Below, piece by piece: positions 34,941 through 64,000 of a stretch of 64,000 bases of DNA. The stretch is taken from the NCBI GenBank assembly GCA_036785375.1, contig JAWMAR010000026.1:8370001-8434000 (forward strand). Direction: 5' to 3'. A program made the translations under genes and the position numbers. The stretch comes from Leucoraja ocellata (taxonomy: Eukaryota). Under the pieces are notes generated by a model. That model saw only the letters and a program-made list of their open reading frames with translations, did not search any database and was not told where the DNA came from. How positions within the stretch are numbered: the stretch's first letter is position 1; each line of letters starts with the position of its first letter.

Positions 34941-35789
34941 CCTTTCAATCAATTTAAACAAAAAAATGTCCAATGTCACACCAATGACTGGCTCAAAGGC
35001 AAATTAAATTCAGCCAGTGAAATTAGTAATTAAACGACAAATGACTGCAGATGAGGAAAATCTGAAATATCGACAGAAAATGCTGAAAGCACTCAGCAGG
35101 TCAGACAGCATCTGTAGAAAAACAGAGTTAACGTTCCTGGTTGATGACTGGCTACAGGGCGATGAGCACCCAGGCCAACAACCTGGCTGCTCAACACCTG
35201 GCTTGAGACCTAACTATTCCTTTGGTTTATGTTTCATTCGCAATAAGAAGAAGAAGAAGAAGAAGAGGAAGAAAAAGCATCCGTTTATTAAAATGTCTGA
35301 ACTTTGCTAGTTAACCACCAGAGGCCAGTGTTGCTCAACAAATGTTAGTTGGTAACATAAGAGACTGCAGATGCTGGAATCTTGAGCAAAAGCGAACTGC
35401 CAAAGGAAATCAGCTGGTCAGGCAGAATCTGTGGAAGTAAAGGACTGGTTGATGTTGTGGGTGAAGGCCCTGCAAGGGAGGATTAGGGCAGGGCTGTTGA
35501 TATTGTAGCAGTTGATTTCAGCAAGGACTGGGAATTTTGAGGGAACATAGCCAGTATAAAGTTAGAATGAGGGGTAACATTGGGGCTGGTCGGTGTAAGG
35601 TGGAAACAGGTGGGGGAGGGGGATGATTGACAGGTGGAACAAGGTAGGGGTAGGGAGGAGTGAGGTAGAGATAGAGGTCGGAAGGTTTTAGATAGAACCA
35701 GATAATTGTAGGATGATGACATCAGGTGAACATGGGATAGGAAGTGTAGACAAGGAGTCAAGAAACTCAAGAGGATGGATAAAGTCATA

Positions 35790-38310: not shown

Positions 38311-38422
38311 ATTACCTCCCTGAGTGTGTGAGGGATCACTCAAATTATTTGGATATCAGAGGTGCTGTTGGAACGGCCTGTGTGTATGCCTGCAATGCAT
38401 TTTGTGTATGTTACTCACTAAT

Positions 38423-41859: not shown

Positions 41860-42082
41860 CTACACACATGAGGACAATGTAGGTTACATTTATAACAAAG
41901 CCAATTAACCTACAAACCTATATGTCTTTGGAGTGTGGGAAGAAAGCGAAGATCTTGGAGAAACCCCACGCAGTCACGGCTAGAATATACAAACTCCATA
42001 CAGACAGCACCCATAGTCAGAATCAAACCCGGGTCTCTGGCGCTGTAAGGCAGCAACTCTACTGCTGTGCCACCATGTCGCC
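41860..42082 (-). mobile_element. tRNA-derived SINE (HE1-like)
   Basis: Minus strand ggTGGCACAGCAGtagagttgctgccttacagcgccagagacccGGGTTTGATTC. Confidence 0.85.
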
Positions 42083-42461
42083 ACTGTGTTCTCCAGAGAT
42101 GCTGCCTGTCCAGTTGCGTTACTCCAGCACTTTGTATCTTTTTTTGAAAATCAGCATTTCCAGTCCTTTGTGCCCAGATAGGTGTTCTGAATGCACACAG
42201 CTCCACCTTGCAAACTCACATACTCTGTCCTCATATTAGTTGCTTGTTATTTGTTCATGGATGAGCTCCATTTTTCCATTAGTTCAAAAGTTCAATAGTT
42301 ATTTTATTGTCATGTATACCTAGATTCCATGAAATGTTCTATTTTGCATATGATCGAGTGAAATAATACTAGACCTAACTAAATCATACACAATTGATAG
42401 AGCGTAACAATTGTAGTGTAAAAAAATTGAAGGAGATTAGAGATTGTGGATTCTGCAATAT

Positions 42462-43346
42462 AGGGAGGTTTCACGGCAGTCGGGTGACGACCCATGACCC
42501 GTACTGTTGCTAGGCTACTCCAAATGGATTGCATGCGATGTACTGCAGGTAAGCATTTACATTGTTTCCAGCGTAGCGGGCCCGTTAAAACCCGCCGAAA
42601 ATGTCAATTTTTGCGCTGCAAATAATTATGGAAATCGGGATAAGCGTGTGAGACATTTATTCTACTTTAGAATTCCAAAAGTGAGGAAAAATGACAGTAT
42701 ATACAAGAGCTGAAGGGACAACAACAGCCAGAGTGCTTAGCGAACATTGGCCGTTTGCTCACTGCATTTCATCAACTAAGGCATTATTTGTGTTTTTCCT
42801 TGATTTCTTTGGCATCTAAAAGTGATCAATCTGGCTGTAATTTTTTTAAATCGCCCATAGTTCTCAAGTGGGTTTTTACATACAAAATAAAAACGCATCT
42901 GAAGAAACATTTACAGCCAGATTGATCACTTCTGAGACTTTTTAGATACCAAAGGAATCAAGAAAACACACAAATAATGCCTTACTGTTGATGAAATGCA
43001 GTGAGCAAACGTGATAATTCCCAATATTTTCAATTCCGATATCTGCACGGCCAATGTTCGCCAAGCACTTTAGCTGCTGTAGTTCCTTCAGCTCTCGCTT
43101 CTCTTTACCTTCATTTTGCTTCACGTTTGGAATTCTAAAGTTGGGTACATGTCTCTCACACTTACCCCAACTTCCACAATTTTTTTCAGCATATAAATTC
43201 AACATTTTGGCGGTTTTTAACAGGTAGGAAAGTACGCGTTTCTAGCATTAATAACATATACCGGAAGTGACGGATGTCCTCCAGCTGGATTGAGCGGCTC
43301 CGTGCGTCAAGCCCTATGACCCAGTGACCTTACGTGCAAACCACCT
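42462..43346. mobile_element. Non-autonomous fold-back DNA transposon with two inverted THAP-domain remnants (ISL2EU-like)
   Basis: Imperfect TIRs AGGGAGGTTTCACG / AGGTGGTTTGCACG and 2-bp AT TSD. THAP remnants NFCAANNYGNR...FRIPKV (plus) and FRIPNV...CLANIGR...VCSLHFI (minus). Confidence 0.72.
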
Positions 43347-43926
43347 ATATTGTCTTTATATTTCCCACAGCAACAATTTGCTGGCAGCGTTTGACTGCAT
43401 CCTCTGCATGGAGACTCTCCGAGATGACTGTCGCATGAGCATGAAGGAAATACAAACAGAAATGCTGAAAATAATTCCAGAGTTTTCAGTTGTTATTTTA
43501 ACTTTCTTGTTAATGTAGATGTTCCACGGTAAAATATAATTGTTTTCCCTGGATTCTCAGAACATGAAAGGAAGCATCAGATGGTGTGTTTGGAAGCTGG
43601 TTCTACCCTCCCATAACTATTGACAAGCCCGCAGTCAGCTTGCACTGCTCAGTAAATTCACAGATTAACTAATGCCTGCACTTTACATAAAACATAGTTC
43701 AGCACCGGAACAGTACATTCAGCCTACAATGTCTGCACAGCCAATGATACCAATTCAAACTAATCCCATCTGCCTGTACATGGTCATATCACTCCAATTT
43801 GTGCCTGTTCATATGCTTGTCTTGGCTAATGCTGGAGGTGTGGCTGCTGGACATTTGAATTACAAGAGGTTGAATGGTATGGGGAGACACTAAGGCAGCT
43901 GTTTTGAGACCAAGATTGATTCAGCC

Positions 43927-43927
<1 letters not shown>

Positions 43928-44013
<86 letters not shown>
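43928..44013. repeat. (TCTG)n microsatellite, about 21 units
   Basis: Direct observation. Confidence 0.95.
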
Positions 44014-44017
<4 letters not shown>

Positions 44018-45119
44018 GTACATAATATATCTATACATACTGTAACTAAAACTCTGATCTTGTGCTCTTCCAGTTTGCGCGTTTTTCCTATTTGCGCAAA
44101 AACGGTATGCTATAGCGCTACGAATTTTCACCACCTTACTCACCGTTCTCCTGTGTTGCGTGTGCAACAGGTTTCGTTTCGATCAGTGGTTTATTGTAAA
44201 AGTTAACGAGGTTTAAAATCTTAAAATTAGTCTCTTCACCTGTCACTCTCCGGGACGGTCCGCCCCATCCTGCGCCATTAAATCTTTACTGGAGCTGAGG
44301 GGCGCTGTGGGTGGCCAGCGGAAGTCTCAAACCACACATCATTTTTGGAGGGACCGGAAGCGGCCAGGCCTGGCCCGGGAGACGTCGCCAAACGGAAAGC
44401 GGAGAATCTGATCCCGGTGCAGGATAGCATCCAGTGCCTGCTATCAGTCCCAACCGCACCGCCATCATAACGCCATGCAGCTCCAGCCCCTTCCCCTCGG
44501 GTCCCCCTCGCTGGCTCCTGTCCCCCTTCCCCATGATACTCCCTCTACCCCATGGCTCTTTCCCCGTCTTTTCTCCGAGCTCTCCACCCTCCCCTTCCTC
44601 CCCCCACACGCCAGCGTGGCCGTAGCTGCTGGCGCTTCCGGGACAAGCCGAGGGTCCACGCCAACGGCTGATGCTCCTCCGGGGCACGCAAGAAGGGAGA
44701 GGAGCGGCAACCTCGAGATCCTGGGGAGGGAGAGTGGGGGAGGAGAGGGGATAGAGGGAGAGAAGGGAAGTAGGGATGGGGAGGAGTTATGGAGGGAGGG
44801 AGGGAGGGAGTGTCTAAGGGTAGGGGAAAGGAGAGGTGAGGGAGGAATTGGGGAGGGTATGAGGAGAAGGAAAAGAAGAGGGAGGAGGTGAGGAGGGAGA
44901 GAATGGGGAGTAGAGAAGGCGGGGTGGGGGAGGTAGGGAGGGGGGGAATAGACAATAGGTGCAGGAGTAGGCCATTCAGTCCTTCAAGCCAGAACTACCA
45001 TTCAATATGATATTGGCTGATCATTCACAATCAGTACCCCGTTCCTGCCTTCTCCCCATATCCCCAGACTCCGCTATTTTTAAGAGCCCTATCTAGCTCT
45101 CTCTTGAAAGTATCCAGAG

Positions 45120-46102
45120 CAAAATTTAAATTGAATAACAACCAATAATTTAAATATCTACAGGTATGTGATTTTATGAAGAAATATATACCAAGATTTC
45201 AAGGTATAATTTTAGATCCACTGGGAGAAGCAATGAATATCAAGGCGGTCAAAAAAAAATAATATCATACCTATATAACAGTATTTTAAACATATAATTA
45301 CCATCAACAGAGGCAATTAGTGAAGACTGGGAAAAATAATTGATGACAAAAATCTCAAAAGAAACATGGGAAAAGTATTTGATATATATACATAAATGTT
45401 CGATCAATGCTAGACACAATTTAATTCAATTTAAAATATTATATAGATTATATTATTCAAAAACTAGGTTGAATAAATGTTATCCAAATATTTCTCCCAT
45501 CTGTGATAAATGTCTTTCTCAAAATGACAATATTACACACTCATTTTTCTTGTACAAAACTTTATAAATTTTGGTGTAACATATTTGATATATTCTCAAA
45601 GCTATTTAAGATTTTTAAAAATGGAACCTAATACTGAAATGATTATATTTGGAGTAAGTGGAGATGGGAACAAATTAAATATACACCAAAACTCATTCTT
45701 CAATTATGGGTTAATAATAGCAAAAAAACTCATACTTAAATTTCTTGAAAAATGCTAATATACCAACATTTAAAATCGTGAAAATTAAAAGTTTCATGTA
45801 TGGGTGAAAGACGATGTAGAACATAAAAAATCATCTCCTTGTGGCGATTGAATAAACTCCCTCCTGCTTTCCCTCTTCACTTATTTATTTTCTTCACTTT
45901 TTTCTCTATCTGCCTTTCACTCACGCTCACTAGCCTATCCTTTACTTTCTACAACCTCTTTTTCCTTTTTCTCTTCTTACTTTTCTCTTTAAAAAAAAAG
46001 GAAGTCGTACAGAGAATATAATATGTTAACATAATTTTGGGTACTTGTAAAAAGGTACCACTGTATTGTACTTACTTCTAATAAATAAAATTATTTAAAA
46101 AA
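45120..46102 (+). mobile_element. AT-rich L1 3' fragment with 14-bp TSD
   Basis: LIQFKILYRLYYSK...CDKC; AATAAA and A-rich tail; TSD GAAAG(T/C)ATCCAGAG at 45106-45119 and 46103-46116. Confidence 0.88.
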
Positions 46103-47791
46103 GAAAGCATCCAGAGAACCGGCCTCCACCAATCTCTGAGGCAAAACTCACAACTCTGTGAGAAAAAGTGTTTCCTCATCTCTGTTCTAAATGGCTTACC
46201 CCTTATTCTTAAACTGTGTCCCCTGGTTCTGGACTCCCCCTACATCGGGAACATGTTTCCTGCCTCTAGCGTGTCCAAACCCTTAACAATCTTCTATGTT
46301 TCAATAAGATACCCTCTCATCCTTCTAAACTCCAGAGTGTACAAGCCCAGCCGCTCCATTCTCTTAGCATATGACAGTCCCGCCATCCCGGGAAACCTAC
46401 GCTGCACTCCCTCAATAGCAAGAATGTCCTTCCTCAAAGTACAGGACACAAACTGCACACAATACTCCAGGTGTGGTCTCACTAGGGCCCTGTACAACTG
46501 CAGAAGGACCTCTTTGCTCCTATACTCGACTCTTGTTATAAAGGCCAACATGCCATTCGCTTTCTTCACTGCCTGTTGTACACTGCCTGTTGTACCTACA
46601 TGCTTACTTTCATAGACTGATGAACAAGGACCCCCAGATCCCATTGCACTTCCCCTTTTCCCAACTTGACACTATTTGGATAGTAATCTGCCTTCCTGTT
46701 TTTGATACCAAAGTGGATAACCTCACATTTATCCACATTAAACTTCATATCCCCCAACCTGTCGAAGTCACCCTGCATTCTCATAGCATCCTCCTCACAG
46801 TTCACACTGCCACCCAGCTTTGTGTCATCTTCAAATTCGCTAATGTTACTTTGAATCCCTTCATCCAAATCATTGATGTATATTGTAAATAGCTGCGGTC
46901 CCAGCACCGAGCCTTGCGGTATCCACTAGTCACTGGCTGCCATTCTGAAAGGGACCCGTTAATCCCTACTCTTTGTTTCCTGTCTGCCAACCAATTATCT
47001 ATCCATGTCAGCACTCTACCCCCAATACCATGTGCCCTAATTTTGCCCACTAATCTCCTATGTGGGACCTTATCAAATGCTTTCTGAAAGTCCAGGTACA
47101 CTACATCCACTGGCTCTCCCTTGTCCATTTTCCAAGTTACATCCTCAAAAAATTCCAGAAGATTAGTCAAGCATGATTTCCCCTTGGTAAATCCAAGCTG
47201 ACTCAGACCGATTCTGTTACTGCTATCCAAATGTGCGGCTATTTCATCTTTTATAATTGACTCCAGCATCTTCCCCACCACTGATGTCAGGCTAACTGGT
47301 CTATAATTCCCTGTTTTCTCTCTCCCGCCTTTCTTAAAAAGTGGGATAACATTAGTTACCTTCCAATCCACAGGAACTGATCCTCAGTCGATAGAACATT
47401 GGAAAATTATCACCAATGCATCCTCGATTTCTAGACCCACTTCCTTAAGTACCCTGGGATGCAGACCATCAGGCCTGGGGATTTATCAGCCTTCAGTCCC
47501 ATCAGTCTACCCAACACCATTTCCTTCAGTTCCTCCCTCACCCCAGATCCTCTGGGCACTACTATTTCAGGAAGATTGTTTGTGTCCTACTTAGTGAAGA
47601 CAGATCCAAAGTACCTGTTCAACTCATCTGGTCTTCAAGGGTCCATCTTTGGTCTTATCTATTTTTTTCCTCTTCACATACCTAAAGAAGCTTTTACTAT
47701 CCTCCTTTATATTCTTGGCTAGCTTACCTTCGTACCTCATCATTTATCCCCATATTGTCATTTTAGTTATCTTCTGTTGCTCTTTAAACAT

Positions 47792-48142
47792 TACCATATA
47801 ACATATAACCATATAACAATTTACAGCACGGAAACAGGCCATCTCAACCCTTCTAGTCCGTGCCGAACACATAATCTCCCCTAGTCCCATATACCTGCGC
47901 TCAGACCATAACCCTCCATTCCCTTCCCATCCATATAACTATCCAATTTATTTTTAAATGATAAAAACGAACCTGCCTCCACCACCTTCACTGGAAGCTC
48001 ATTCCACACAGCTACCACTCTCTGAGTAAAGAAGTTCCCCCTCATGTTACCCCTAAACTTCAGTCCCTTAATTCTCATGTCATGTCCCCTTGTTTGAATC
48101 TTCCCTACACTCAGTGGGAAAAGCTTTTCCACGTCAACTCTG
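47792..48142 (-). mobile_element. CR1 3' end of a second subfamily, nested in CR1
   Basis: ORF 47881-48153; gttatatg tail. Same subfamily as 60577-61571. Confidence 0.88.
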
Positions 48143-49449
48143 TAAAGACCCAATCATTTTGTTTCCCGCTCATCTATGCTACATTGTACTTCTTCCCTTT
48201 TATTTTTATACTATCCCTGATGTCCCTTGTCAGCCACGGTCACCCCTTACTCCCTTTGGAATCTTTCTTTCTCCTAGGAATGAACTGATCCTGCACCTTC
48301 TGTATTATTCCAAGAAATACCTGCCATTGTTGTTCCACTGTCATCCCTGCTAGGTTATCTTTCCAGTCAACTTTGGCCAGCTCCTCCTCATGACCCCATA
48401 GTCCCCTTTATTCAACTGTAACACTGACACCTCCGATCTACCCTTCTCCCTCTCCAATTGTAGATTAAACCTGACCATATTATGGTCACTGCCTCCTAAT
48501 GGCTCGTTAACCTCAAGTTCCTTTATCTAATCCGGTTCATTGCATATCACTAAATCCAGAATTGCCTTCTCCCTGGTAGACTGCAATACAAGCTGCTCTA
48601 TGGATCCATCACAAAGGCACTCAACAAAGTCCCTTTCTTGGGGTCCAGTACCAACCTGATTTTTTTCAGTCTATCTGCATGTTGAAATCTCCCATAACAG
48701 CACATCATTACTTTTGCTATATGCCTATTTTAACTCCTGATTCAACTTGCACCCAATGTCCAGTCTACTGTTTGGGGGTCTGTAGATGTTCCATTAGGGT
48801 ATTTTTACCCTTACAATTCCTTAGTTCTATCCATACTGACTCCACTTCTCCTGTTCCAATGTCACCCATTGCAACGGACTGAATTTCATTCCTCACCAAC
48901 AGAGCTACCCCACCCCCTCTGCCCACCTGTCTGTCTTTTCGATAGGAGGTGCACCCTTCAGTTCCCAGCCCTGGCCCTCTTGCAGCCATGTCTCTGTAAT
49001 TCCCACAACATCATACTTGCCCATTTCTAACTGAATAGAGGGAGGGGAGGGCAGTGGGGGGCGTGAGGAGGGATAGTGGGGGGATAGGGCATGTGAGGAG
49101 TGGGGGATAGAGGGACATGAGGGGGGTAGGGAGGGGATAGGGGTTATGGAAGGAGGGAGTGACTGAGGGTGGGGAAAAGAGAGTGAGAGAGAGGTGAGGG
49201 AGGGATTGTTGGAGGGTAGGAGGAGAGGGTAAAGAAGAGGGAGGGGAGAGAGTGCTAGGGATGAGGGGAAATGAGCTGCGCCTGTGCAGTTGGGGGCTAT
49301 GGGTGAGTGGTGGAATAATATGCTGGGGGACCAAGTCTCCTGTGTGAAAGGGACCCGTTGGGACCCACTTAGTCTAGTTTTATTTAAAGGCAGACCTGGT
49401 TCAAGGAGTGAATTGGTCTTTGCCTCCTGTTTCTTATGTTATGTTGCCA

Positions 49450-49830
49450 AGATTTGAGGACCTGAGCTTTAAGAAGGTATAAGGAGAGGTTGGGAAGGGT
49501 AGTTTTGGAATCATAGGAGCATAGGAGAATGAAATGTGTATGAGATCATGAAGGGAACAGGATAGATGCACATAGTCTTTTACTCAGAGCAGTGGAATCG
49601 GACAGGCGACTTTTTCACTGAGAGCGGTGGATATATAGAATGAGCTGCGGAGGAGGTAGTTGAATCAGAAAATATAACACCATTTAAGAGACTTTTGGAT
49701 AAGCACATGGATTGGATTGGTTAGGAGGGATATGGGCTAAAGATAGGTGGGACTAGTGCAGGTAGGGTACATTGGTTGGCAGGGACAAACTGGGTCAAAG
49801 GACCGCTTTCCATCCTGTATGACTATGACG
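49450..49830 (+). mobile_element. CR1 3' fragment, degenerate
   Basis: Similar to the 3' end of the 27480-28352 copy; ctatga tail. Confidence 0.65.
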
Positions 49831-50509
49831 CTATAAATTCCTGGGACACAATCTCCCTTGTACAAAACCAACCTTTAATCAACCCATCTCTCTCAATGCA
49901 TGTATATCTTATCTCGCAGAATCCTCTCCTGCAAATTTCCTGCCAAGGAATGTTACACTTAACCCATCTGTAGCTGAACAATTCATTAAAAAGGATCGGG
50001 AATATTTACAAGTAAAAAATCCTGTATGAATGAAGCAGAAGATCACCGAGGATTGAGTGGAAGCCAACACTCACATCGGAGGTTCTGCAATGTGTGCTCT
50101 TGTATGTGTGTATTTTTGTCTGTGTTGGGAAAGACGGGAACTTGAACTATAAAAGTGCTCTGCTGGTCTACTCCAAAGTGGAGATATGCTACAAAAAGAT
50201 AGGAATTTCATGTCACAACCACTCTCACCTTGCAAGCTTAAGCATCATTCCAGGTTGTTGCTCTTGATCTCTGCCGCTGCTCATAATGTGGTACTCACTG
50301 CTGCATAACCTCAGGCTCATTGAAAGGAGACAATAGGCTTCCCCATCAGCCCCCAGAGGCAGGGAAATTGACGTGCCTGCATCGCAGGCATCCTAAAGGC
50401 AACATTCAGAGTTAACAATTTTGCTCTCACTGAAACCTTCCTGAGAGCATCCCGCTGTGGGCGACACCACCACAGTGGGCCACATATCAAATAATGACAT
50501 ATAATTACA

Positions 50510-50835
50510 ATAAAAAAGAGATAGTGATCAACCACAGGAAGCAAAGTAGTATACATTGATGGCACCAAAGTAGAGATGGTTGAAACTTCAGGTTTCTAGG
50601 AGTAAATATCATTAGCAACTTGGCCTGGACTAGCCATATCAAAGTCATGGGCAAGAAAGCACACTGACCCCTCTACTTCCTCAAAAGGTTTAGGAAGTTC
50701 AGCACATCCTCAACAATTCTCACCAACCTCAACAGATGTGCTGTAGAAAGCATATTATCGGGGTGCATTACAGCATTGTTTGGGAACAGCTCCTCTAAGC
50801 TCCTCCAAAAAATTGCAAAGATATATAGATGCAGC
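50510..50835 (+). mobile_element. Rex1/Babar LINE internal fragment
   Basis: Similar to 9450-9600 and 10105-10270. Confidence 0.7.
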
Positions 50836-50970
50836 CATTTGGCCTATCTAGTCGGGACTGGACTATTGCCCCTCTAAAATGTATCTTTCCCCCTCCTTTG
50901 CTTGTCCTCGATATAAGATATCCCCTCGATTTCCCCCATCCTACTTCGCATCTTGAATTGGTCGATTCTA

Positions 50971-52476
50971 CGAATCTTTAGATTCTGGAGTAGTTCCTGA
51001 AGATTGGCGGGTAGCAAACGTAACCCCACTTTTTAAGAAGGGAGGGAGAGAGAAAATGGGGAATTACAGACCAGTTAGTCTAACATCGGTAGTGGGGAAA
51101 CTGCTAGAGTCAGTTATTAAAGATGGGATAGCAGCACATTTGGAAAGTGGTGAAATCATTGGACAAAGTCAGCATGGATTTACGAAAGGTAAATCATGTC
51201 TGACGAATCTTATAGAATTTTTCGAGGATGTAACTAGTAGCGTGGATAGGGGAGAACCAGTGCATGTGGTGTATCTGGACTTCCAGAAGGCTTTCGACAA
51301 GGTCCCACATAAGAGATTAGTATACAAACTTAAAGCACAAGGCATTGGGGGTTCAGTATTGATGTGGATAGAGAACTGGCTGGCAAACAGGAAGCAAAGA
51401 GTAGGAGTAAACGGGTCCTTTTTCACAATGGCAGGCAGTGACTAGTGGGGTACCCCAAGGCTCAGTACTGGGACCCCAGCTATTTACAATATATATTAAT
51501 GATCTGGATGAGGGAATTGAAGGCAATATCTCCAAGTTTGCGGATGACACTAAGCTGGGGGGCAGTGTTAGCTGTGAGGAGGATGCTAGGAGACTGCAGG
51601 GTGACTTGGATAGGCTGGGTGAGTGGGCAAATGTTTGGCAGATGCAGTATAATGTGGATAAATGTGAGGTTATCCATTTTGGTGGCAAAAACAGGAAAGC
51701 AGACTATTATCTAAATGGTGGCCGATTGGGAAAGGGGGAGATGCAGCGAGACCTGGGTGTCATGGTACACCAGTCATTGAAGGTAGGCATGCAGGTGCAG
51801 CAGGCAGTAAAGAAAGCGAATGGTATGTTAGCTTTCATTGCAAAAGGATTTGAGTATAGGAGCAGGGAGGTTCTACTGCAGTTGTACAGGGTCTTGGTGA
51901 GACCACACCTGGAGTATTGCGTACAGTTTTGGTCTCCAAATCTGAGGAAGGACATTATTGCCATCGAGGGAGTGCAGAGACGGTTCACCAGACTGATTCC
52001 TGGGATGTCAGGACTGTCTTATGAAGAAAGACTGGATAGACTTGGTTTATACTCTCTAGAATTTAGAAGATTGAGAGGGGATCTTATAGAAACTTACAAA
52101 ATTCTTAAGGGGTTGGACAGGCTAGATGCAGGAAGATTGTTCCCGATGTTAGGGAAGTCCAGGACAAGGGGTCACAGCTTAAGGATAAAGGGGGAATCCT
52201 TTAAAACCGAGATGAGAAGAACTTTTTTCACACAGAGAGTGGTGAATCTCTGGAACTCTCTGCCACAGAGGGTAGTTGAGGCCAGTTCATTGGCTATATT
52301 TAAGAGGGAGTTAGATGTGGCCCTTGTGGCTAAGGGGATCAGGGGGTATGGAGAGAAGGCAGGTACGGGATACTGAGTTGGATGATCAGCCATGATCATA
52401 TTGAATGGCGGTGCAGGCTCGAAGGGCCGAATGGCCTACTCCTGCACCTAATTTCTATGTTTCTATGTTTCTATGT
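50971..52476 (+). mobile_element. Young 5'-truncated CR1 LINE; RT domain intact except for one frameshift
   Basis: ORFs 51056-51445 and 51438-52376 (QHGFTKGKSCLTNL, GVPQGSVLGP, KFADDTK) are separated by one extra T in 51419-51423; (tttctatg)3 tail. Confidence 0.96.
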
Positions 52477-53905: not shown

Positions 53906-54395
53906 GCGAGCACATGAGAAGCAAAAATCTGCGAGGGAATATATGACCACTGTTGGTGGAAGATAGTTGTGAGGGCAGAAGGCACCAGATAACATTGGCG
54001 CCGTTTTCAACAGTTCCCTTATTTTCTTGAGAAATGCCGGTGTCTTGAGTCACTGTATTTTCACATAGGTCGACCCTGGACCCCACATTCGCGACGATCA
54101 GTACGAGGATATTGCTCAATAGATTACATAGATTACATGGCAGCAATTTCTAGCTGCATTGAATTTCTGTAGTTGTTCAGCAAATGCTTTGTGAAGTTTT
54201 CGGAAACGTGTGAGCGGCCACTAACTTCACCTTTGCTCCGCGTCAGTGCGCAGAGAGGCAGCTCATGCATGAGATGAGCATGAGCAGACTCACTTTCCGG
54301 CACACCCACTGAACCCAAGCATACTCGCGGTATTCCTCGCTCACTATTTATTCGACACTTGTTTCAGTCGACTGTTCTCTGCAGTTTTGCCGTGA

Positions 54396-54447
54396 ATGAT
54401 GACACGTGTCTTACTGCAATTGATTGTTCTTCACATCAGCTGCGCCG
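54396..54447 (+). CDS. IgSF receptor exon 1: signal peptide MMTRVLLQLIVLHISCA
   Basis: ATG, hydrophobic core, phase-1 donor G|gtatat and a 171-nt intron to the V exon; typical split-leader layout. Confidence 0.82.
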
Positions 54448-54618
54448 GTATATTTTACTCTTGCTATAGACAGTCCGACCGAAAGTTAATTATCAATTTA
54501 TATGTTTGCTGATCCTTTATCTTTATTTATTTTCTCCTTTCGTGCAATTTTCAATTAATTTGGTCAATACCTCGCTTTAATCCTAAACCTTATAGTTTGA
54601 TTTTTCGTTTCCCGACAG

Positions 54619-54930
54619 CCGGTGGCGATGGTCCGTTGACCGTAACACAAGTTCCAGAAGCAGTTTTGATGCGGGGTGACTCGGCAGTGCTTTACTGCAT
54701 TTATCCAATCTTCTCAGACAACAAGCTGTACACAGTGCATTGGTGGAGAGATGGGGATAATAGATTCCTGGATGAAAGTGCAGATAGACGAATCCAGTTT
54801 TATTTCCTGAGAGGGGGAAGCGCTGTCTTACGGATGGAGGACGTGACAGTGAAGGACGCCGGGCTCTATTTCTGCAGCTTGACACGTTCCGAAATTTTAA
54901 ACGGGACTGGTACAAAGCTGGTAGTTTACG
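54619..54930 (+). CDS. IgSF receptor exon 2: V-set domain with germline-joined J-like G strand (VJ domain)
   Basis: Acceptor tttcgtttcccgacag, donor G|gtgagt, phase 1->1. Motifs: LTVTQVP, B-strand L-Y-C, C-strand W (VHWWR), D-A-G-L-Y-F-C, and G-T-G-T-K-L-V-V. Confidence 0.93.
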
Positions 54931-54974
54931 GTGAGTTTCGGGGAGAGGAGTGAGCCAGATCGGTCAACTTCAAC

Positions 54975-55292
54975 TGTTGGAGGAAAACAGAACCAGGGGC
55001 CACAGTTTAAGAATAAAGAGTAAGCCATTTAGAACGGAGACGAATAAATACTTTTTCACACAGAGAGTTGTGAGTCTGTGGAATTCTCTGCCTCAGAGGG
55101 TGATGGAGGCCGGTCCTCTGGATGCTTTCAAGAGAGAGCAAGATATGGCTCTTAAAGATAGCAGTCAGGGGATATGGGGAGAAGGCAGGAACGAGGTACT
55201 GATTGGAGATGATCAGCCGTGATCACATTGAATGGCGGTGCTGGCTCAAAGGGCCGAATGGCTAACTCCTGCACATACTGTCTACTGTCTAT
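54975..55292 (+). mobile_element. CR1 3' fragment in intron 2 of the IgSF gene
   Basis: RTRGHSLRIK...FFTQRVVSLWNSLPQR. Confidence 0.88.
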
Positions 55293-56285
55293 TCACCAAC
55301 TAAAAGCGATTAGCTCAATCAAGTTAAAGAAATTGCGCTTTCTTCATCATCTGTGTGCTTTGAAATAATATGATTTTTGTGATGGGTTAGATAGTATTTT
55401 TGACGCAATTACCAACGAATCCGAATAGACGTATTGAGAGAGTAAATGATGCCTTCCACACCTTCTGCTTGACAGAATTAAAACACCTTTCGCGTATATT
55501 TTAGAATTGCTTCAACGCCGAGGGAAGGTTGTTACTGAAACCAACAACACACGATACAGGTAGTTGAGAGTGAAAGTATGCAGGGTTCCGAATGTGGTAC
55601 TGATCAAGGAGATTTTTTAATTGATTTCTTTGGACCTGTCACATTTTTTTAAATCTAAATTGTAAGGAATTTCAGAATTATAGAATCATACAACACAACA
55701 ACTGGCCCGTTCTGCCCACGTCGTCTCTGCCGACCGTGCTACTTATATATGTTGATGGCGTTTGCCTGCATTAGGACCATATTCCTCTATAACGCTTCTC
55801 CGTAATTACCAGTCTAACGCGATTTAAATGTTATTATTGTACTGCACCCTCTTCTGTGACAGATGTTCCAAGTGTGCAAACCTTCCTCGTTTACATTTTC
55901 CACTTTTACCTAAAAACCGTGCCTCATAGTGCGTGATTCCACTATGAGGCGGGGGGGGGGGGGGGGGCTCCGTCTGTGTGGCCCCGATATTTAAAAAAAA
56001 TAACCTTTTACAAGGTTACTCTTCTCCCTCCTATGTTCTACTGAGAATAAACCAAGTTCACCAAATGTCTCGTTTTTTATTCATCATCTGTGTCTCGTTA
56101 TAACTAGGCCCCTCTATTTCAGTCAACATTCTGGTGAACTTCCTTTGCACTTGCTCAATTGGTACCATGTTAATCCGTTGTATAAGTTTGGTCACATTTC
56201 TGATTGTTCCGGGTGCTACTTGAAATTATATAGGAGCCGTGAAGCGAGTCAGTCATTGAGGGATAAAGATCTGTATTGTTACATT

Positions 56286-56418
56286 TAGTCTGAAGAAGGG
56301 TCTCGACCCGAAACGTCAACTACTCATTTTATCCAGAGATGCTGTCTGACCCGCTGGTTACTACAGCTTTTTATGTCTACCTTCGGCTTAAACCAGCATC
56401 TCTAGTTCCTTCCTACAC
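56286..56418 (+). mobile_element. Penelope-derived short repeat with hammerhead ribozyme core and 11-bp TSD
   Basis: TSD ATTGTTACATT (56275-56285, 56419-56429); CTGAAGA-A-GGGTC-TC-GACCC-GAAA-CGTC at 56290-56317. Confidence 0.8.
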
Positions 56419-57370
56419 ATTGTTACATTAACATATATTTTCCGTTAACTTTCCACTTATGATTGTAGCGATAGCAGCAATGGAAATAGAATTAAGATCA
56501 TGTAGATATTGAAAACGGTTTGTTTTTAAATGGTGCAAATGTACATGTAGTTTGAATCTCCAGCCTACATTTTGGGCGGCTTACGCAGACGCTGATCACT
56601 GTTTGAGCTATTGTAAATGGATGGGGTAGTGACATTTTCATGTATGAATGTCATTGATATCGTCTCAGAGGCCTTTACATACCATCCAAAATTCTTAAGG
56701 CAATGTGATGGTGCTGGGATAATTGTGCTCGAAGTAAGGCAATACCTTCTTCTGTGCTTAATGGAACTCTAAATAGCGAGCTGTTCCCTCTGGTCCAGAT
56801 GTACAATATGTTTTCACACATTTTTCTGACCTTGTAAATTAAAGCTTTTTTTTTAACCTCAAGTTACTTCTGAATAAACCTTCTGCCCGAGTTAGTTATT
56901 TGAACAACGAGAAAGAATATATTTGTAAAATTTGGATAGTCGAGCTGTTATTATTGATTACATTTTGTACAATTAACACAAAATTATAATCAAAATCGCG
57001 AAGACGATTAAAAAAAATCAAGTTAATGCTTTGGCTCCTAATGTCCCTGCACAGAGCGGAACGCATCATTTACATGCGCTGCCAGTAGTAGCGGAAGCGC
57101 CATATTTATGAAGTAAGGTGTACAATATACCACAATTGTAAAATCAAGGCATACGACGACGAGGATTAAAAGGAAGGAAATTAGTCGTTAGATAATACCA
57201 CAACAAGGAAAATACTTAACAGTTTGAAATCACTGTAAGTGCATTGGTTATAAAACCAGACTGAAAACAAATATAATTCAATTAAGATTTTTTTCGAGGT
57301 TGCAATGAAATTTGATTCGTCACGAATTACGGGACTGGTGAAATATTTTTTAAATCGTTTTATTTTCCAG

Positions 57371-57673
57371 ACCCCCCAACTCCTCTGAGCTTGACCACCA
57401 TGCTGCCGGAGAACACATCGGTTTCTCTGATTCTCGTTTGTAAAACAGCAACGTTCTTTCCTCTTGATCTGAATATTACTTGGTACAAAAATGGGTCAGA
57501 TATTATACAGAAGATTGAGCCAAACAAAACGCAGACTTCAGCAGGACTGTACGAAGCTTGGAGCAGCCTGACCGAGACAGACGATGTGGAGAGCGGGACA
57601 GTTTATACCTGCCAGGTGTCTCATATTTCTCTTCCGAATCCAACCAATATCAGTTATACTTTCTACAGTCGAG
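57371..57673 (+). CDS. IgSF receptor exon 3: C1-set domain (D)PPTPLSL...LVCKTATFFPLDLNITWYKNG...YTCQVSHISLPNPTNISYTFYSR
   Basis: Acceptor ttttattttccag, donor G|gtaaga; 303 nt, phase 1->1. C1-set signatures L-x-C...F-F-P...I-T-W and Y-x-C-x-V-x-H-x-S-L. Confidence 0.93.
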
Positions 57674-57989
57674 GTAAGAATAACGATACATTTTCAGTGC
57701 AATTTGGCCACATATCCATTATTACCTCCGGAAAAGGTGTGGTTAATAAACCAAATTGTCCATTTAGCACCGTTGACACGTGTGTACCACAACAATGGGC
57801 GATGTTGGGACAAACGTCCATACTTGTGTGTGTCTCATGAACGTTATACTCATGAAAGTATATTTTCGTGCCAAAACACCACGCTATGGTAAGATCAGGA
57901 GTAATTGGACTTACATATTCTGGAGACAGAGGTGGTTGGCTGGGCCTCCCCCCCCCCCCCCCTAGTGTACAGGAGGCTGAACGTAAAAC

Positions 57990-59240
57990 ATACAATAGTA
58001 CCGCACAGGAGAGGTCCCTTCATCCATGATTGCACACAACATGATGTCTCATCTGCCTGTAGGTGATCCATATCCCTCGATTCCATGTGCCAACTGCAGA
58101 TGCTGGTTTACACCAAAGATAGACACAAAATGCTCGAATAACTCAGCGTGACAGACAGCATCTCTGGATAGAAGGAATGGGTGACGTTTTGGGTCACGAT
58201 CCTTCCTCGTGTGCCTGTCTAACATCCTCCTAAACGCCACTACAGTATCCGTCTCCACCACCACCCCTCGCAATTCGTCCCACGATCTCAATACACTTAG
58301 TAAAAGTCTTGCCACGCACATCTCCAAGAAACCTTCCCCATCTCAGCTTAGAGCTATGCAGTCTAAGAATGGCAATGTCAAGCCCTGGAGAATGAATCTG
58401 ATGGTCTACCATATCTACGCCTCCTAAAGTTATTCAGGTCGACCTTTTGCATTCCGTAAAAACCTCTTAATTGTCATTATTGTTCCTTTGTATCTTGGTA
58501 TCTTTATCCACTACCACGTCTGGCAGCACATTCCAGGCACCAACCACGCTCTGTGCATAGCACTTGCTCGGCATCTCTTCTTTAAACTTGTCCATCCAAC
58601 CTAAACCTACTCTAGTCGTTTTTACACCAATAAAGGCTCTGACCAGTCGTGCCACTCATAATTTTATATACTTCCATCCAGAATCCTTTCAGCCTGCACT
58701 GCTCTGGAAAAGACAATCAAATCTGTTCTAACCTCTCCTTGTACCCAATACCCTCCAATCTAGACAGCATCCTGGTTAAAGGCAGCATTGTGGCGCTGAT
58801 AATGGAGGGAGCTGTCGACGGAGCCAAGACCCGTTTGTACATCAATGCTGTTTACTGTATGCGCCCACCCTACATTCGACCTCCCAAAGTGCTACACCTC
58901 ACGCTACCTCGGATAAAACTCCATCTGTCATTTGTCCACCAATTTCTGTAGCTGATATATATTTCCACTGTATCCTTTGACAGCCCTGCTGGATGTCCGC
59001 AACTTCGCCCATTTTGGCATCGTTTGCAAACATACGCATGAACTCATCTACGTTTACATCCAAGTCATTCATATAGAAATCACAAACATTGATCCTGGTA
59101 GAAGTGCACTTATCACAGAGCTCCAACCAGAACACTCTTCTACCTCAACTCTCTGTCTTGTTTGAGTAAGCCAGTTCTGAATCCATACCACCAAGTCACC
59201 CTGAATCCGATCCATCTCAATTTTCTGGATCAGCCTGTCC
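57990..59240 (-). mobile_element. Old CR1 fragments with a nested Penelope-derived repeat (~58093-58200)
   Basis: YMNDLD...MFANDAK and VVWIQNWL remnants in minus-strand ORFs. Confidence 0.7.
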
Positions 59241-60576
59241 TGCCGTGGACTAAGCCAAGGTGACTGACCGCAATTAATCAATTTTCTGCCAATAAATCCA
59301 ATCCTGAATTATATTCTTCAATAAATTCCCTTTCACTGACGAACCATTCCCCATGTTACTATGCTTCCCAACCAGTCTTGTATATTTCCCTTAGCCGTCT
59401 ACAATGGAATCTACAGTTAAAATTCCAAGATTTTCCAGCATATCTTAATGGATGGACAATAATTATTGATTAGCCAAGACAACTACGAAAACAGAAATGA
59501 TCGCATTGGAATTTGCAAGACCTTGCTTTGTTGAAACTGCGCGCTTCCTTCCCCGCTACACATCACGTACTTCTACATTCTTCATATGGCCTCGCCTATG
59601 GTGCAAATAACCTCCTGCCATATTACGTTGGATTCACCCGGCCTGTAATTTACTCTTCCAATGGATTCCTCCAGATTTGCACTGGAATTTATTCTCCCCA
59701 TGCGACCAAGCCGATCAGCACCCAGCGAGATTCTTTAAACTTTACAAGTGATTCACTCATGCCTGTTGAAGGATTTCTAAACTTGTCGAGGTAAAGGGGG
59801 CGGTGGATGGCACCATTTCACCGAGTACTGATGTGTGTCCTTCGCTTAATTGCCATTATTCTTGATCCTTTATCCTCTCCATATTTTTCTTTTTACATCG
59901 AGCCTTAATCCCAAGCATGAAGATTTCGCAGCATTGGTTATAATCGGCATTTTAAAATGAATGATGGTCCGCAATTCCAAGATCACTGACACTATTTGTT
60001 AGAATTCAATTTGCAATGAATTCCAATGTACTTTGCAAAAACATGGCAGGTTCCGCCCACGCGTAAACGAATCTATCAAATGGTTTCAATTTAATAGATT
60101 CTCTGAGACATTTGAACATTTATTTTGTCATGGTGACCTGAATCAAGTACACAGGACAAGATGTTAAGAAGTCCCTTGTGCCAATAGGTGGGGAGCATTT
60201 CACGACATTCGTTGACTGTTGAGAGTAGTAGACGCTCAACATCGGTGGGGGGGGGGGGGGGGGGGGATACGTATACCTTGGCCTGATCTACCATTGGCAT
60301 AATTTAAGAAATTTTTGCAAATATTTTGAGGACACGCTGTTTCCTGCCCGAATAATGGACATTGCTTGTACATTGGAAACTCTTGTATATAATGGAGAAA
60401 ATCTAACAACCAAGTTATAAAATTAAATATAGCCACAAAAAGCTGGAGTAACTCAACGGGACACGCAGCATCTCCGGAGCGAAGGAATGGGTGACGTTTC
60501 GGGTCGAGACCTTTTTTCAGACCCGACCCGAAACGTCATCCATTCCTTCTCTCCAGAGATGCTGCCTGTTCCGCTG

Positions 60577-61571
60577 GGGTGCCTCAGGGATCTGTGTTGG
60601 GTCCTTCGTTGTTTGTCATGTACATCAATGATCTGGATGAAGGTGTGGTAAATTGGATTAGCAAGTATGGAGATGATACCAAGATAGGGGGTGTTGTGGA
60701 TAATGAAGAGGATTTCCAAAGTCTACAGAGTGATTTAGGCCATTTGGAAGAATGGGCTGAAAATTGGCAGATAAATGTGAGGTGCTACACCTTGGCAGGA
60801 CAAATCAAAATAGGACGTACATGGTAAATGGTGGGGAATTGAAGAATACAGTTGAACAGAGGGATCTGGGAATAACCGTGCATAGTTCCTTGAAGGTGGA
60901 ATCTCATATAGATAGGGTGGTAAAGAAAGCTTTTGGTATGCTAGACTTCATAAATCAGAGCATTGAGTATAGAAGCTGGGATGTAATGTTAACATTGTAC
61001 AAGGCATTGGTGAGACTAAATCTGGAGTATGGTGTACAATTTTGGTCGCCCAATTATAGGAAGGATGTCAACAAAATAGAGAGAGTACAGAGGAGATTTA
61101 CTAGAATGTTGCCTGGGTTTCAACAACTAAGTTACAGAGAAAGGTAGAATAAGTTAGGTCTTTATTCTCTGGAGCGCAGAAGGTTAAGGGGGGACTTGAT
61201 AGAGGTCTTTAAAATAATGAGAGGGATAGACAGAGTTGATGTGGACCAGCTTTTCCCTTTGAGAATAGGGAAGATTCAAACAAGAGGACATGACTTCAGA
61301 ATTACGGGACAGAAGTTTAGGGGTAACATGAGGGGGAACTTCTTTACTCAGATAGTGGTAGCGGTGTGGAATGAGCTTCCAGTGGAAGTGGTGGAGGCAG
61401 GTTCGTTGGTATCATTTAAAATGAATTGTATAGGCATATGGATGAGAAGGGAATGGAGGGTTATTGTATGAGTGCAGGCAGGTGGGACTAAGGGTAAAAA
61501 GTTGTTCGGCATGGACTTGTAGGGCCGAGATGGCCTGTTTCCGTGCTGTAATTGTTATATGGTTATATGGT
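60577..61571 (+). mobile_element. CR1 3' fragment inserted in a head-to-head Penelope-derived repeat (~60435-60576 and ~61572-61630)
   Basis: PQGSVLGP...KYGDDTK and C-terminal ORFs; gttatatg tail. The host repeat resumes after the tail. Confidence 0.9.
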
Positions 61572-63113
61572 TACTGCAGTTTTTTTGTGTCTATCTTCGG
61601 TTTAATCAAGCATCTGTAACTCCTTCTTATAAGAGTTATAACATTAATTCGCGTGTGTCTAAATATTGGATAGACTTATTTTGTAAAGAGGTAACAAGAC
61701 ATTTTGAGGAATGATTGCAGTAGCTGACGTCAATGAAGAGTTTTGAATTAAAAAGATTCGACAAAGCTTCAACCAAAATGTTGGTTATTAATGCTGTCGC
61801 TCATAGAATGAAACCAGTCAACTAATCAATAAACAAGCTTTCAAGAAGGCATACGAAGTAATGAAGAGAGTTTTACAGAGAAAAAGCTGGATATAGGATG
61901 TTGCTCTTCAATTATCGGATGGGAAAGCGTGGGTGGAATAAGATTCAGTGCAGTAATCTGTTTATGATTCTTACAAAACTTGTAACCAGACATAAAAGCT
62001 GACCCATGTAAGTTGCCATTTGATGCATTTGAAGTAAAATCAAAAGACAGGCCAGAAAGTGATATGTGCGCGTCCTTTCACTAGAGCTGCGCGTTGTGCC
62101 GTCCCAAACCATTGCATATTTTACGTGTTAATGGGCCTCTTGACAAATTTAATCGATTCGTTACCGCAAATCAATAAAACCATTCATGGAATGTTTCTTG
62201 TGTTTGAGGAAGATATCGTGAATCTGCTGCCATGCCTAACCCCTCCAGGTTGCTCACTGATATTCTAAGTCAAAGGAGCATTTTCGTCTGTGTTCTGTAT
62301 GGATTTTCGATGGTCGCCGTGCCATCCTGAATACAGCGGACGTCAATTCGCCTTTGGAAGTAGACTACGAGGTCATGCACATCATTAGAATGGACGGTTC
62401 CAAAAAATCGGGTTCCATCGATACTCTGGATTTAAAAAACAAATGATTATGTGTTTCTGTGTTGTACAGCACATCATTTGTCACGAATGGTATTTCCACT
62501 GTTCAGTCACAGCGAGCGAAATCTACCTTCGATTTTCCTACCACTCTCTTGAAATTAATTTTATTTGGGATCGGATTTCACAGCAAATTTCAACTTCCTT
62601 AATTACATTCCCAATATTCCATGAATACTGCATCGTCTATAATTCTGCCTCGAGCACACCAGGGCCGCCAATAAACGTAATGACGGTGGAGATTTTTTTC
62701 CAGCCACACTGTTGAATCACAAGGTGAAGAGTATATAACTCTTTATCCCTTGCCATTCGTAGACATTCCACAAAACGTCTTGTTGTACCGACACAGCTAT
62801 AAATCAATACTTGTTACGCTCTGCGACCTATCCAAGCTACATACTTATATACTGTTTAGAATTGGTTGCAGGCAAATATTTGGTTCTTCTGCACCTTAAT
62901 GATTCTTTGATCATATGTTATTTACACACAACTGGCATGAGACAAAAATGAAAAAGACAGCAACTGCGTTCATGGGCAATGTTCATGTGTGTTTATTCCC
63001 GTCGACGTCAACTCGATATAAACAAAGACAGAATTATGCTTTTGAAATAGCAGCCTGCCCTATTATTAACACTATAAATATATTACAACTTGTCATTATT
63101 TTATTGTTTACAG

Positions 63114-63212
63114 TTCCATTACCCGATAATCCATTTCATAACTGGATTTATGGTTGCATCGGAGCAGGATTGATACCTCTCATAATCATTATTTTCATTG
63201 TGAAACGGAAAG
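63114..63212 (+). CDS. IgSF receptor exon 4: stalk and transmembrane (V)PLPDNPFHNWIYGCIGAGLIPLIIIIFIVKRK
   Basis: Acceptor ttattgtttacag, donor G|gtaagg; 99 nt, phase 1->1; ~20-aa hydrophobic span followed by a KRK stop-transfer motif. Confidence 0.87.
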
Positions 63213-63289
63213 GTAAGGCTCCTAAACTTTTTGATCTCGAGATTGTTATAAAATTAACCAATCAAAATTCAGCAATACTTTAGTTAGAA

Positions 63290-63450
63290 ATACAGCTCGG
63301 AAACAGGTGATTCGGCCCACCGAGTCGGCGCCGACCAGCGACCCCGTCATAGTTACACTATCGTACACACACTAGGGACAATTTACAGTTATACCAAGCC
63401 ATTTCATCTACAAATCTGTACGTCTTTGGAGAGTGGGAAGAAACGGAGAT
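63290..63450 (-). mobile_element. SINE 3' fragment (HE1-like)
   Basis: Similar to 15085-15240. Confidence 0.7.
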
Positions 63451-63871
63451 GCAGGAGAAAATAATATTGGAGAGTTATATTGGATCGGACACTGCATGCG
63501 TTAGCTGGTCTGTGGTACATACGCCCCATCTCACTGAGTGCATCGTTTCTCGGAAGCTAACTTTTGAGTTAGTCACCGATTTGTTCATGCAGGATAGCTG
63601 CTTGGTGTTTTGGGGCAGGTTGTGGGATAAGGGGTTGAGTGTGAAAAATGGGTCGGTGATGCAGAAACACATTCTGTAATTGAATGTGCTCCGGCTCGTA
63701 GAGGACTAATATCCTGTAGATTTTTAACAATTGGTATCGTGATATTAGTTTTGCTACATACATGTATACAAACTCAAAAGTTTAAAAAAATGTATATGCT
63801 GCCAGATTTACTGGCTACTACGATTCTTTGTAATGGCCAAAAGTTTTGTATTCAAAATTACCTCACTCTAG

Positions 63872-63915
63872 GGACGTGCAGAAAATCGAAAGGACGTGCA
63901 GGGCATACAACAAAG
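63872..63915 (+). CDS. IgSF receptor candidate exon 5: cytoplasmic (G)TCRKSKGRAGHTTK; no stop codon, so the gene continues beyond the window
   Basis: Acceptor ttacctcactctag, strong donor AAG|gtaaga; 44 nt, phase 1->0, compatible with the TM exon. Confidence 0.6.
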
Positions 63916-64000
63916 GTAAGACATGTATAATACTGCAGAGACGTTCAAACAGCACTCGGACATCCTCCCAATTATTACCTTCGTTTGGATAATTACAAAA

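Follow-up and report, generated by a model that had tools for sequence, protein, structure and literature searches.

In the search for relatives of the gene that was split by RAG, non-rearranging VJ-C1 genes are of interest. The locus considered here, a window of 64,000 nucleotides on a contig of Leucoraja ocellata (C26), raises the question whether a gene with the layout of an antigen-receptor chain is a germline receptor of this kind and, if so, to which receptors it is related. The gene comprises the following features in the window:

54396..54447, + strand: exon 1, split leader (signal peptide), 52 nt, phase 1 donor
54619..54930, + strand: exon 2, single-exon VJ domain with J-like G strand, without RSS, 312 nt
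57371..57673, + strand: exon 3, C1-set domain, 303 nt
63114..63212, + strand: exon 4, connecting peptide and uncharged transmembrane helix, 99 nt; same exon in Amblyraja P0112
63872..63915, + strand: exon 5, short basic cytoplasmic exon, 44 nt, phase 0 donor
63916..64000, + strand: start of intron 5; the gene extends past the window end

The initial annotation described five in-phase exons with canonical splice sites and no stops, and this is confirmed by the AG/GT ends of exons 1-5 and by their joined frame of 810 nt, which is open over 270 codons. That V and the J-like strand share one exon, followed by a single C1 exon, is borne out by Pfam matches of exon 2 to V-set (E 1.2e-8) and of exon 3 to C1-set (E 6.7e-13). 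Exon 4 holds the sole hydrophobic segment, in which there are no charged residues. The J-like strand was recognized correctly as far as G-x-G-T-x-L-x-V is concerned, but it has Asn where antigen-receptor J segments have F/W. The leader is 96-100% identical across three paralogues, and the gene product has 93% identity to a Leucoraja protein. The junctions agree with annotated gene models of other species, namely V-C1 with Leucoraja P0001, C1-transmembrane-exon 5 with Amblyraja P0112, and the entire layout with Heptranchias P0002.

Exon 5 had been regarded as the cytoplasmic tail. It is indeed a short basic cytoplasmic exon, but it is not the end of the gene, since two exons of 111 nt follow outside the window:

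G000:C26:8434818-8434928, + strand: exon 6, 111 nt, phase 0, tyrosine motifs IVYSDF and TIYTQ
G000:C26:8440902-8441012, + strand: exon 7, 111 nt, phase 0, canonical ITIM LTYTTL, plus TVYAQ

The tail carries one canonical ITIM, the other tyrosine motifs being weaker. All seven exons are open and have canonical sites. The frame of exon 7 runs on to a stop codon 7 codons further, and no exon was found further downstream; the 3' end of the gene is therefore uncertain.

The gene is part of a multigene paired family. The skate assembly contains 50 VJ matches, whose C1 partners lie 1-9 kb downstream and some of which are probably haplotype duplicates, and 24 intact V-C1 genes were found in 523 kb of sequence examined. 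These have one C1 per gene in 23 cases, and the remaining gene has a degenerate second C1. In the window, a scan for RSS turned up two weak matches (14119 and 30351), both remote from the gene, which agrees with the absence of a complete RSS initially noted. Across the family, no RSS follows any of the 24 V exons (best 7 mismatches), in contrast to 15 of 15 TCR V controls. Together with the layout, this supports the proposal of a non-rearranging VJ-C1-transmembrane receptor gene of cartilaginous fish. As had been anticipated, relatives carry automated names (SIRPα-like, tapasin-like, IgL-like, NCR3LG1-like); they exist only under such names, so that the genes are already in databases with misleading labels.

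In phylogenetic analyses, the family V domains form one supported clade (96/98 in a first tree; 97/96 in a second tree, which is the first minus 27 rows, including a C-domain row labelled UrIg2_P0082), and so do the C1 domains (97/96). Both clades take in shark, ray, and chimaera (Callorhinchus) proteins and are apart from the sampled TCR, germline-joined IgL, SIRP, UrIg2-like, and B7-H6-like sequences. On the Ig/TCR side, these trees drew on IgL and TCR Vα/δ-type sequences of the skate, on Ig C domains, and on a single teleost IgH, with SIRP references from lizard and lungfish only and without TCRβ/γ, IgH V, TCR C, PRARP, and shark NCR3. The subfamily of the window gene has orthologues in Heptranchias, Heterodontus, and Mobula (support 100/99), and a characterized orthologue did not turn up. 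Searching PDB sequences with V exons or with profiles gave mostly multi-domain Ig proteins. A turtle protein, P0206 (six VJ, transmembrane arginine), matches the activating transmembrane profile of the family, and its best skate match is a family member (E 2e-4); its V lies outside the family clade in both V trees, and it remains a lead.

Skates carry Ig light chain or TCR genes that were joined secondarily in the germline, and a VJ-C1 gene could also be one of these. The layout is that of IgL and TCR, germline-joined IgL genes do exist in the same genome, and the best Foldseek matches are Ig light chains (19-23% identity), which dominate that library. A sister relation of the family V to IgL or TCR also survives AU tests (p-AU 0.16 and 0.30). 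However, the family V domains are not nested within the sampled TCR or germline-joined IgL V, and in the C1 tree a split with 92/86 support places the family on the non-Ig side. F/W-G-x-G is absent from the family G strands displayed, unlike the five germline-joined IgL exons of the skate, which carry FGKGT. The transmembrane helix, the ITIM tail, and the subfamily orthologues in three other genera likewise argue against this origin, which is extremely improbable.

A second explanation is that these genes are the chondrichthyan SIRP family, i.e. true SIRPα/β orthologues with one C1 instead of two and part of a CD47-type 'don't eat me' system. Like SIRPα/SIRPβ1, the skate family combines a germline VJ with C1 and occurs as inhibitory/activating pairs, and the tail of a Mobula family member aligns with the lizard SIRPα tail in such a way that all four of its tyrosines are in register. 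The family tail HMM matches the same lizard tail with E 1e-5 (among 12 proteins). The nearest ESM Atlas clusters are SIRPα (score 0.96, a lead only); a query with the V exon gave generic V-set clusters only. A V clade of the family plus SIRP survives the AU test (p-AU 0.18), and none of the three V sister hypotheses was rejected, an outcome compatible both with and without the proposed kinship to the RAG-split ancestor. In the free trees, however, neither SIRP V nor SIRP C1 ever joins the family, and the V profile ranks lungfish SIRP V (39.6) below CD28H-like VJ (63.8), TCR V (48.0), and IgL V (44.7). SIRPs have two or more C1 domains, and SIRPβ1 carries Lys at mid-membrane, in contrast to the single C1 and the outer arginine of the activating skate forms. 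The skate family also differs in its dozens of copies and in its neighbouring genes, which on C26 are a septin-7-like gene, an LRR gene, and MBTPS1. The human SIRP neighbours are NSFL1C, FAM110A, and SNPH; SEP, FAM110, and syntaphilin family genes are absent from C26 (in an assembly below chromosome level). MLYCD is located on C98 and not on C26. A search of the genome for the CD47 family, run without a positive control, gave no match. According to PMC9652883, SIRPs are known from mammals, birds, and lizards and are of unknown origin, and they have been grouped as tetrapod (PMC13262535); lungfish SIRP-like proteins were found among database proteins. On balance, true SIRP orthology is quite unlikely.

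It is also conceivable that the family is already named, as a chondrichthyan expansion of the PRARP or NKp30/NCR3 lineage. PRARP, which Fu et al. are said to have described in 2019, is reportedly a non-rearranging VJ-C1-transmembrane receptor with ITIM/ITSM and adjacent gene pairs, a definition that the window gene matches in a comparison by description only. With NKp30/NCR3 and CD28H-type receptors, the family shares the single-exon VJ and an alike G strand; CD28H-like VJ was the best profile match tested, and human NKp30 gives a weak full-length match to the family V (E 3e-4 to 8e-4). The outer arginine of the activating skate forms also resembles that of NKp30. On the other hand, transmembrane-arginine activating forms and a large array are not known for PRARP, and no PRARP-named protein was among the database matches of the family, including 30 proteins looked up. 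NKp30 is without C1 (PMC11999971), while the family has a C1 exon between V and transmembrane exon, and ITIM forms are common in it. NKp30 and PRARP are placed in the MHC (PMC10751288). In the white shark, five NCR3 genes are listed for the MHC chromosome (chr19), whose gene table extends to 115.6 Mb, whereas the family member P0225 sits on a 193.5-Mb sequence. A contig-level search for MHC class I gave no match on C26; an MHC class II β family search likewise gave none, the positive control being absent as well. Membership in one of these named lineages appears unlikely.

The elasmobranch non-rearranging VJ examples in the literature consulted are UrIg, UrIg2, and NCR3. UrIg and UrIg2 resemble the window gene in combining a non-rearranging VJ with a split leader and C1 domains (PMC12227049). 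They differ in having three to eleven C1 domains, linkage to the MHC or to Ig/TCR complexes, and expression in liver or gill (PMC12227049), and neither the V nor the C domains of UrIg2-like sequences join the skate family. A literature search gave no description of a chondrichthyan paired VJ-C1-transmembrane family, with the proviso that key papers or supplements may already list the genes.

The array is partly an inverted mirror with 97-99% identity; window positions 32.9-52.3 kb mirror C26:8.04-8.06 Mb. Because of this mirror, and because the contigs C578 and C1270 are apparently redundant, family counts may be inflated. The window copy might be a silent duplicate that looks intact, or the mirror array an assembly artefact; an N gap lies at 8,497,616. 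In four RNA runs, labelled with a related species and of unstated tissue, the leader and C1 bins of the window gene had zero depth, and no exon-exon joint was found; the reads fell on intronic repeats only, which permits no verdict on expression. Transcript-like support exists for a paralogue only, in form of a Logan contig of 1,024 bases that encodes V-C1-transmembrane (P0245). Against a silent or artefactual copy stand the seven open exons, the differences between the mirror copies, which include insertions and a C1 exon of 92% identity, and the intact orthologues in other skates, rays, and sharks. We regard this explanation as distinctly improbable.

Sister genes occur as ITIM-tailed and transmembrane-arginine forms with ectodomains that are 85-98% identical (seven sister pairs: V 92-97%, C1 85-98%). 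In a hand-compiled census of 22 of the 23 genes on C26, which are not independent of each other, intact ITIM units were present in none of 10 arginine forms vs 9 of 12 neutral forms (Fisher p 0.0005), and after removal of four mirror copies in 0/8 vs 7/10 (p 0.004). A tail exon was not found for 3 of the 12 neutral genes, and B' retains one tyrosine motif. Among database proteins, which are gene models from non-independent species, at least two ITIM-like motifs occur in 0 of 20 arginine forms and in 31 of 66 neutral ones; a single ITIM-like motif is present in 6 of the 20. The arginine was gained by separate substitutions in different subfamilies, and B' lost its ITIM tyrosines.

The near-identical arginine partner of the window gene lies 40 kb away at C26:8464834. 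It has the arginine near the outer end of the transmembrane helix and a tail without tyrosine. At the DNA level, leader, intron 1, V, and C1 of the two genes are 97-100% identical, whereas the end of intron 2, intron 3, the transmembrane exon, and intron 4 are 56-82% identical. The C1 of the partner is 97-98% like inhibitory copies, yet only 92% like its own mirror copy. The ectodomain exons of the two genes thus show exon-limited homogenization, the pattern of gene conversion. The genome also encodes an FcRγ-like transmembrane exon with Asp, i.e. an adaptor gene of the FcRγ/CD3ζ type. The linkage of genes whose ectodomains are nearly identical but whose predicted signalling motifs are opposite amounts to a paired-receptor layout. 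In KIR and Ly49, activating copies come from inhibitory ones via gain of a transmembrane charge and loss of the ITIM. KIR, Ly49, Siglec-11/16, CD300, and NITR are likewise paired receptors under concerted evolution, but the skate scaffold is VJ-C1, an antigen-receptor-chain layout, and the homology seen is that of the Ig fold. For Siglec-11/16, ectodomain gene conversion is described in PMC5701461.

Gene structure, family size and clade, the ITIM and transmembrane-arginine forms, homogenization, and the adaptor gene were observed directly. They favour reading the window gene as a receptor of leader-VJ-C1-transmembrane layout that is encoded in the germline without rearrangement and has an ITIM tail, and that is likely the inhibitory member in a family of paired receptors of cartilaginous fishes (probability about 0.75). 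On the best reading, signalling would by analogy resemble that of SIRPα/NKp30-type receptors. From ITIM biology, it is expected that a ligand engages the V domain, whereupon Src-family kinases would phosphorylate the ITIM/ITSM-like tyrosines; these would recruit SHP-1/SHP-2, and the leukocyte would be dampened. The arginine partner may pair with the transmembrane Asp of FcRγ/CD3ζ and cause activation, as is general for charged transmembrane segments. According to paired-receptor theory, the inhibitory form might recognize a self surface protein that is mimicked or bound by pathogens, while activating copies would repeatedly arise from inhibitory ones and be kept matched by gene conversion. A bolder version, which we consider quite a long shot, is an undescribed family predating the shark-chimaera split, with dozens of non-rearranging VJ-C1-transmembrane receptors in TCR-chain layout that would form a KIR/Ly49-like self-sensing repertoire outside the MHC and Ig/TCR regions. 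This family would be a direct descendant of the pre-RAG receptor, and its A/B cassettes, arranged tail to tail and made up of two inhibitory or two activating genes, would encode TCR-like heterodimers.

Compared with the elasmobranch VJ genes considered so far, the locus instead points to a large family that extends across the chondrichthyans, is organized in on/off pairs, and has two domains and a membrane anchor as in a TCR chain. It supplies concrete candidates for the receptors by which leukocytes of sharks and skates would recognize self and be inhibited, none of which are known to have been identified. The family also provides an outgroup for the question of SIRP and antigen-receptor origin and clearly exemplifies how activating receptors can be derived repeatedly from inhibitory ones.

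The window gene is real and intact. Its exons are listed below, with plain numbers counted from the window start and C26 denoting the window's contig.

Exons of the window gene
54396-54447: exon 1, leader, AG/GT-type splice ends
54619-54930: exon 2, V-set (VJ), E 1.2e-8, AG/GT ends
57371-57673: exon 3, C1-set, E 6.7e-13, AG/GT ends
63114-63212: exon 4, transmembrane (TM), AG/GT ends
63872-63915: exon 5, cytoplasmic, AG/GT ends, phase-0 donor at its end
C26:8434818: exon 6, beyond the window, 111 nt, phase 0, IVYSDF and TIYTQ
C26:8440902: exon 7, beyond the window, 111 nt, phase 0, canonical ITIM LTYTTL and TVYAQ

Joined exons 1-5 form a stop-free frame of 270 codons, whose product contains six N-glycosylation sequons and one hydrophobic segment free of charged residues. 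The initial annotation had claimed five exons with canonical splice sites and no stops, a V domain with a single C1-set exon, and no complete RSS; all three claims were borne out, the RSS scan finding none near the window gene. It had also described a five-exon gene with a cytoplasmic tail, of which exons 1-5 stand but not the gene's end, as two 111-nt exons lie beyond the window. These were located using the tail of the Heptranchias orthologue P0002 (52% identity in V). The last exon runs through to an ITSM-type TVYAQV followed by a stop, and no exon downstream of exon 7 was found in the window gene.

The sequence comes from a skate, as the V domain shares 93% identity with a Leucoraja protein and C1-TM-exon 5 splicing is the same as in an Amblyraja gene model. 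Reads from four runs, labelled as a related species and of unstated tissue, were mapped to window 54001-64000: depth was zero in the leader and C1 exon bins, coverage lay on intronic repeats, and no exon-exon joints of the window gene were listed. That this copy is silent or artefactual is quite unlikely. One paralogue is represented by a 1,024-base Logan contig that encodes a 232-residue V-C1-TM protein; the contig is too short for the introns, a sign that at least one member of the family is spliced.

The VJ-C1 family to which the window gene belongs is distinct, ancient and chondrichthyan-wide, and has paired-receptor anatomy. The window gene's V exon has at least 50 matches in the assembly, a lower bound of the search (26 on C26, 13 on C1270, 10 on C578, one on C105), with C1 matches close by; given the apparent redundancy of C578 and C1270 and an inverted mirror, 97-99% identical, within C26, the true count is below 50 on that ground. 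In the 523 kb examined, 24 V exons are intact and every one has its C1; one further V is degenerate, as is one additional C1. Skates, rays, sawfish, sharks and the chimaera Callorhinchus all have relatives, which go by automated names, as had been suspected. In one protein search, 37 of 39 matches were chondrichthyan, the other two being weak teleost multi-Ig proteins. The C26:12080645 gene (loci L055, L056) and proteins P0099, P0225 and P0248 form a conserved subfamily found in many sharks and rays, with a neutral TM and a basic tail without ITIM-like motifs, possibly a non-signalling or founding member. In the literature covered, among it PMC12227049, PMC10751288, PMC11599192, PMC9652883, PMC13262535, PMC11999971, PMC6795676 and PMC5701461, no account of the family was found, though an earlier description may exist.

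A single clade (96/98; 97/96 in a reduced 32-row set) unites 35 family V domains and excludes all outgroups: skate TCR V, skate joined IgL, lizard and lungfish SIRP, UrIg2-like V, B7-H6-like V and a turtle multi-VJ protein, labelled from source names and domain layout, one outgroup row of the full set being a C domain. The C1 tree likewise joins 20 family domains in a single clade (97/96), placed on the non-Ig side of a 92/86 split. Orthologues of the window gene's subfamily are present in Heptranchias, Heterodontus and Mobula (100/99). Sister relations to IgL (p-AU 0.16), TCR (0.30) and SIRP (0.18) were not rejected. With a single template per group, the family V profile scored a CD28H-like skate VJ highest (63.8), followed by TCR V (48.0), IgL V (44.7), SIRP V (39.6) and UrIg2-like V (34.9). 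CD28H-like single-exon VJ genes with an EIP motif lie at C175:1140527 (L082) and C228:2491622 (L142), the latter being the best match among the templates tested. In Chelonia mydas P0206, named an NCAM2 isoform, six VJ domains stand in tandem and the TM carries an Arg, like the family's activating TM; the protein is probably a misnamed immune receptor.

RSS were present at none of the 24 intact family V exons (best candidate 7 mismatches) and, as a control, at 15/15 TCR V segments from C471 (0-3 mismatches), in a comparison using 26 of 30 loci from the preceding locus search; five germline-joined IgL exons of the same genome carry FGKGT. On C471, TCR Vα/δ-type segments flanked by RSS form a large array, and joined light-chain VJ exon clusters lie on C384, C531 and C4817 (L059, L063, L072, L080, L088). 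Nesting within TCR/Ig V families had been named as a refuting outcome, and the family V domains form a clade separate from the TCR V and joined IgL V sampled; a joined Ig/TCR gene is highly improbable despite the unrejected sister relations. No result assigns the family to SIRP, NCR3, UrIg or Ig/TCR. Orthology to SIRP, whose V domains fall outside the family clade with their sister relation unrejected, is unlikely.

The C26 cluster adjoins a septin-7-like gene and an LRR gene, presumably DNAAF1, and the C105 member lies next to MBTPS1 (E 2.6e-22); in human, DNAAF1 and MBTPS1 lie at 16q23-24. In this contig-level assembly, MHC class I, a TCR V array, IgL clusters and the SEP, FAM110 and syntaphilin families are on other contigs. 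FAM110 C-terminal matches (144 genome-wide, many broken, scattered over many contigs) suggest a burst of retrocopies or mobile-element capture. A tandem-duplicated unit at C26:7.71-7.74 Mb (L130, L132) contains a GST C-terminal exon and a 321-codon ORF that looks GPCR-like by eye. Reverse-transcriptase-type ORF fragments of the kind found in LINE repeats occur at window 50957-52373, 60653-61573 and elsewhere, one in intron 3, and insertions differ among paralogues. White-shark P0225 sits on a 193.5-Mb sequence; for the white shark MHC chromosome, the PMC10751288 supplement gives five NCR3 genes and a gene table ending at 115.6 Mb. Descent from the PRARP/NCR3 lineage is rather doubtful.

Two signalling types are distinguished by sequence. 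Among 23 intact C26 genes in the examined blocks, 22 were classed, by hand, and one enters an N gap: Arg near the outer TM end occurs in 10/22, none with intact ITIM units, whereas ITIM exons are present in 9 of the 12 neutral-TM genes (p 0.0005; p 0.004 without four mirror copies). A family C1 occurs in 129 database proteins, of which 30 lack a TM, and 86 distinct TMs were kept; at least two ITIM-like motifs occur in 0/20 Arg-TM versus 31/66 neutral-TM proteins, which are non-independent gene models classed by a rule that overlooked one Arg. Seven sister pairs are 92-97% (V) and 85-98% (C1) identical, and subfamilies A and B 33% and 43%, respectively. The window gene's near-identical partner, C26:8464834, carries a Gly-to-Arg change in the TM, and its short tail has no tyrosine; next to this partner, B' has exchanged Leu for Arg and lost 3/4 tail tyrosines, and a third subfamily again shows Gly to Arg. 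A and B genes are arranged tail-to-tail, both members of each cassette having the same sign, and their products may form heterodimers. At C26:7954026, an ectodomain of 7894332 type with an Arg-TM exon of 7874433 type suggests exon shuffling between subfamilies.

The window gene and its partner show homogenisation. They share 97-100% identity over leader, intron 1, V and C1, versus 56-82% for flanking intron segments and TM, and the partner's C1 is 97-98% identical to inhibitory copies versus 92% to its own mirror copy; exon-limited gene conversion is the simplest reading. Window 32892-52256 mirrors an opposite-strand stretch, C26:8040001-8060000 (L133, L134), at 97-99% identity with some indels; gene order is mirrored as well, pointing either to two haplotypes that were joined or to inverted duplication of a large segment.

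An adaptor gene is represented on C201 by an FcRγ-like TM exon that includes an Asp, and C175 holds a second such match. With a probability of about three in four, the window receptor would, as established for ITIMs, recruit SHP-1/2 and inhibit, while its Arg partner would use FcRγ/CD3ζ and activate, as charged TMs do, and the ligand, following paired-receptor theory, would be a self molecule that pathogens exploit. PRARP/NCR3 descent and SIRP orthology are compatible with this same mechanism, and by analogy the family would work like SIRP/KIR-type pairs.
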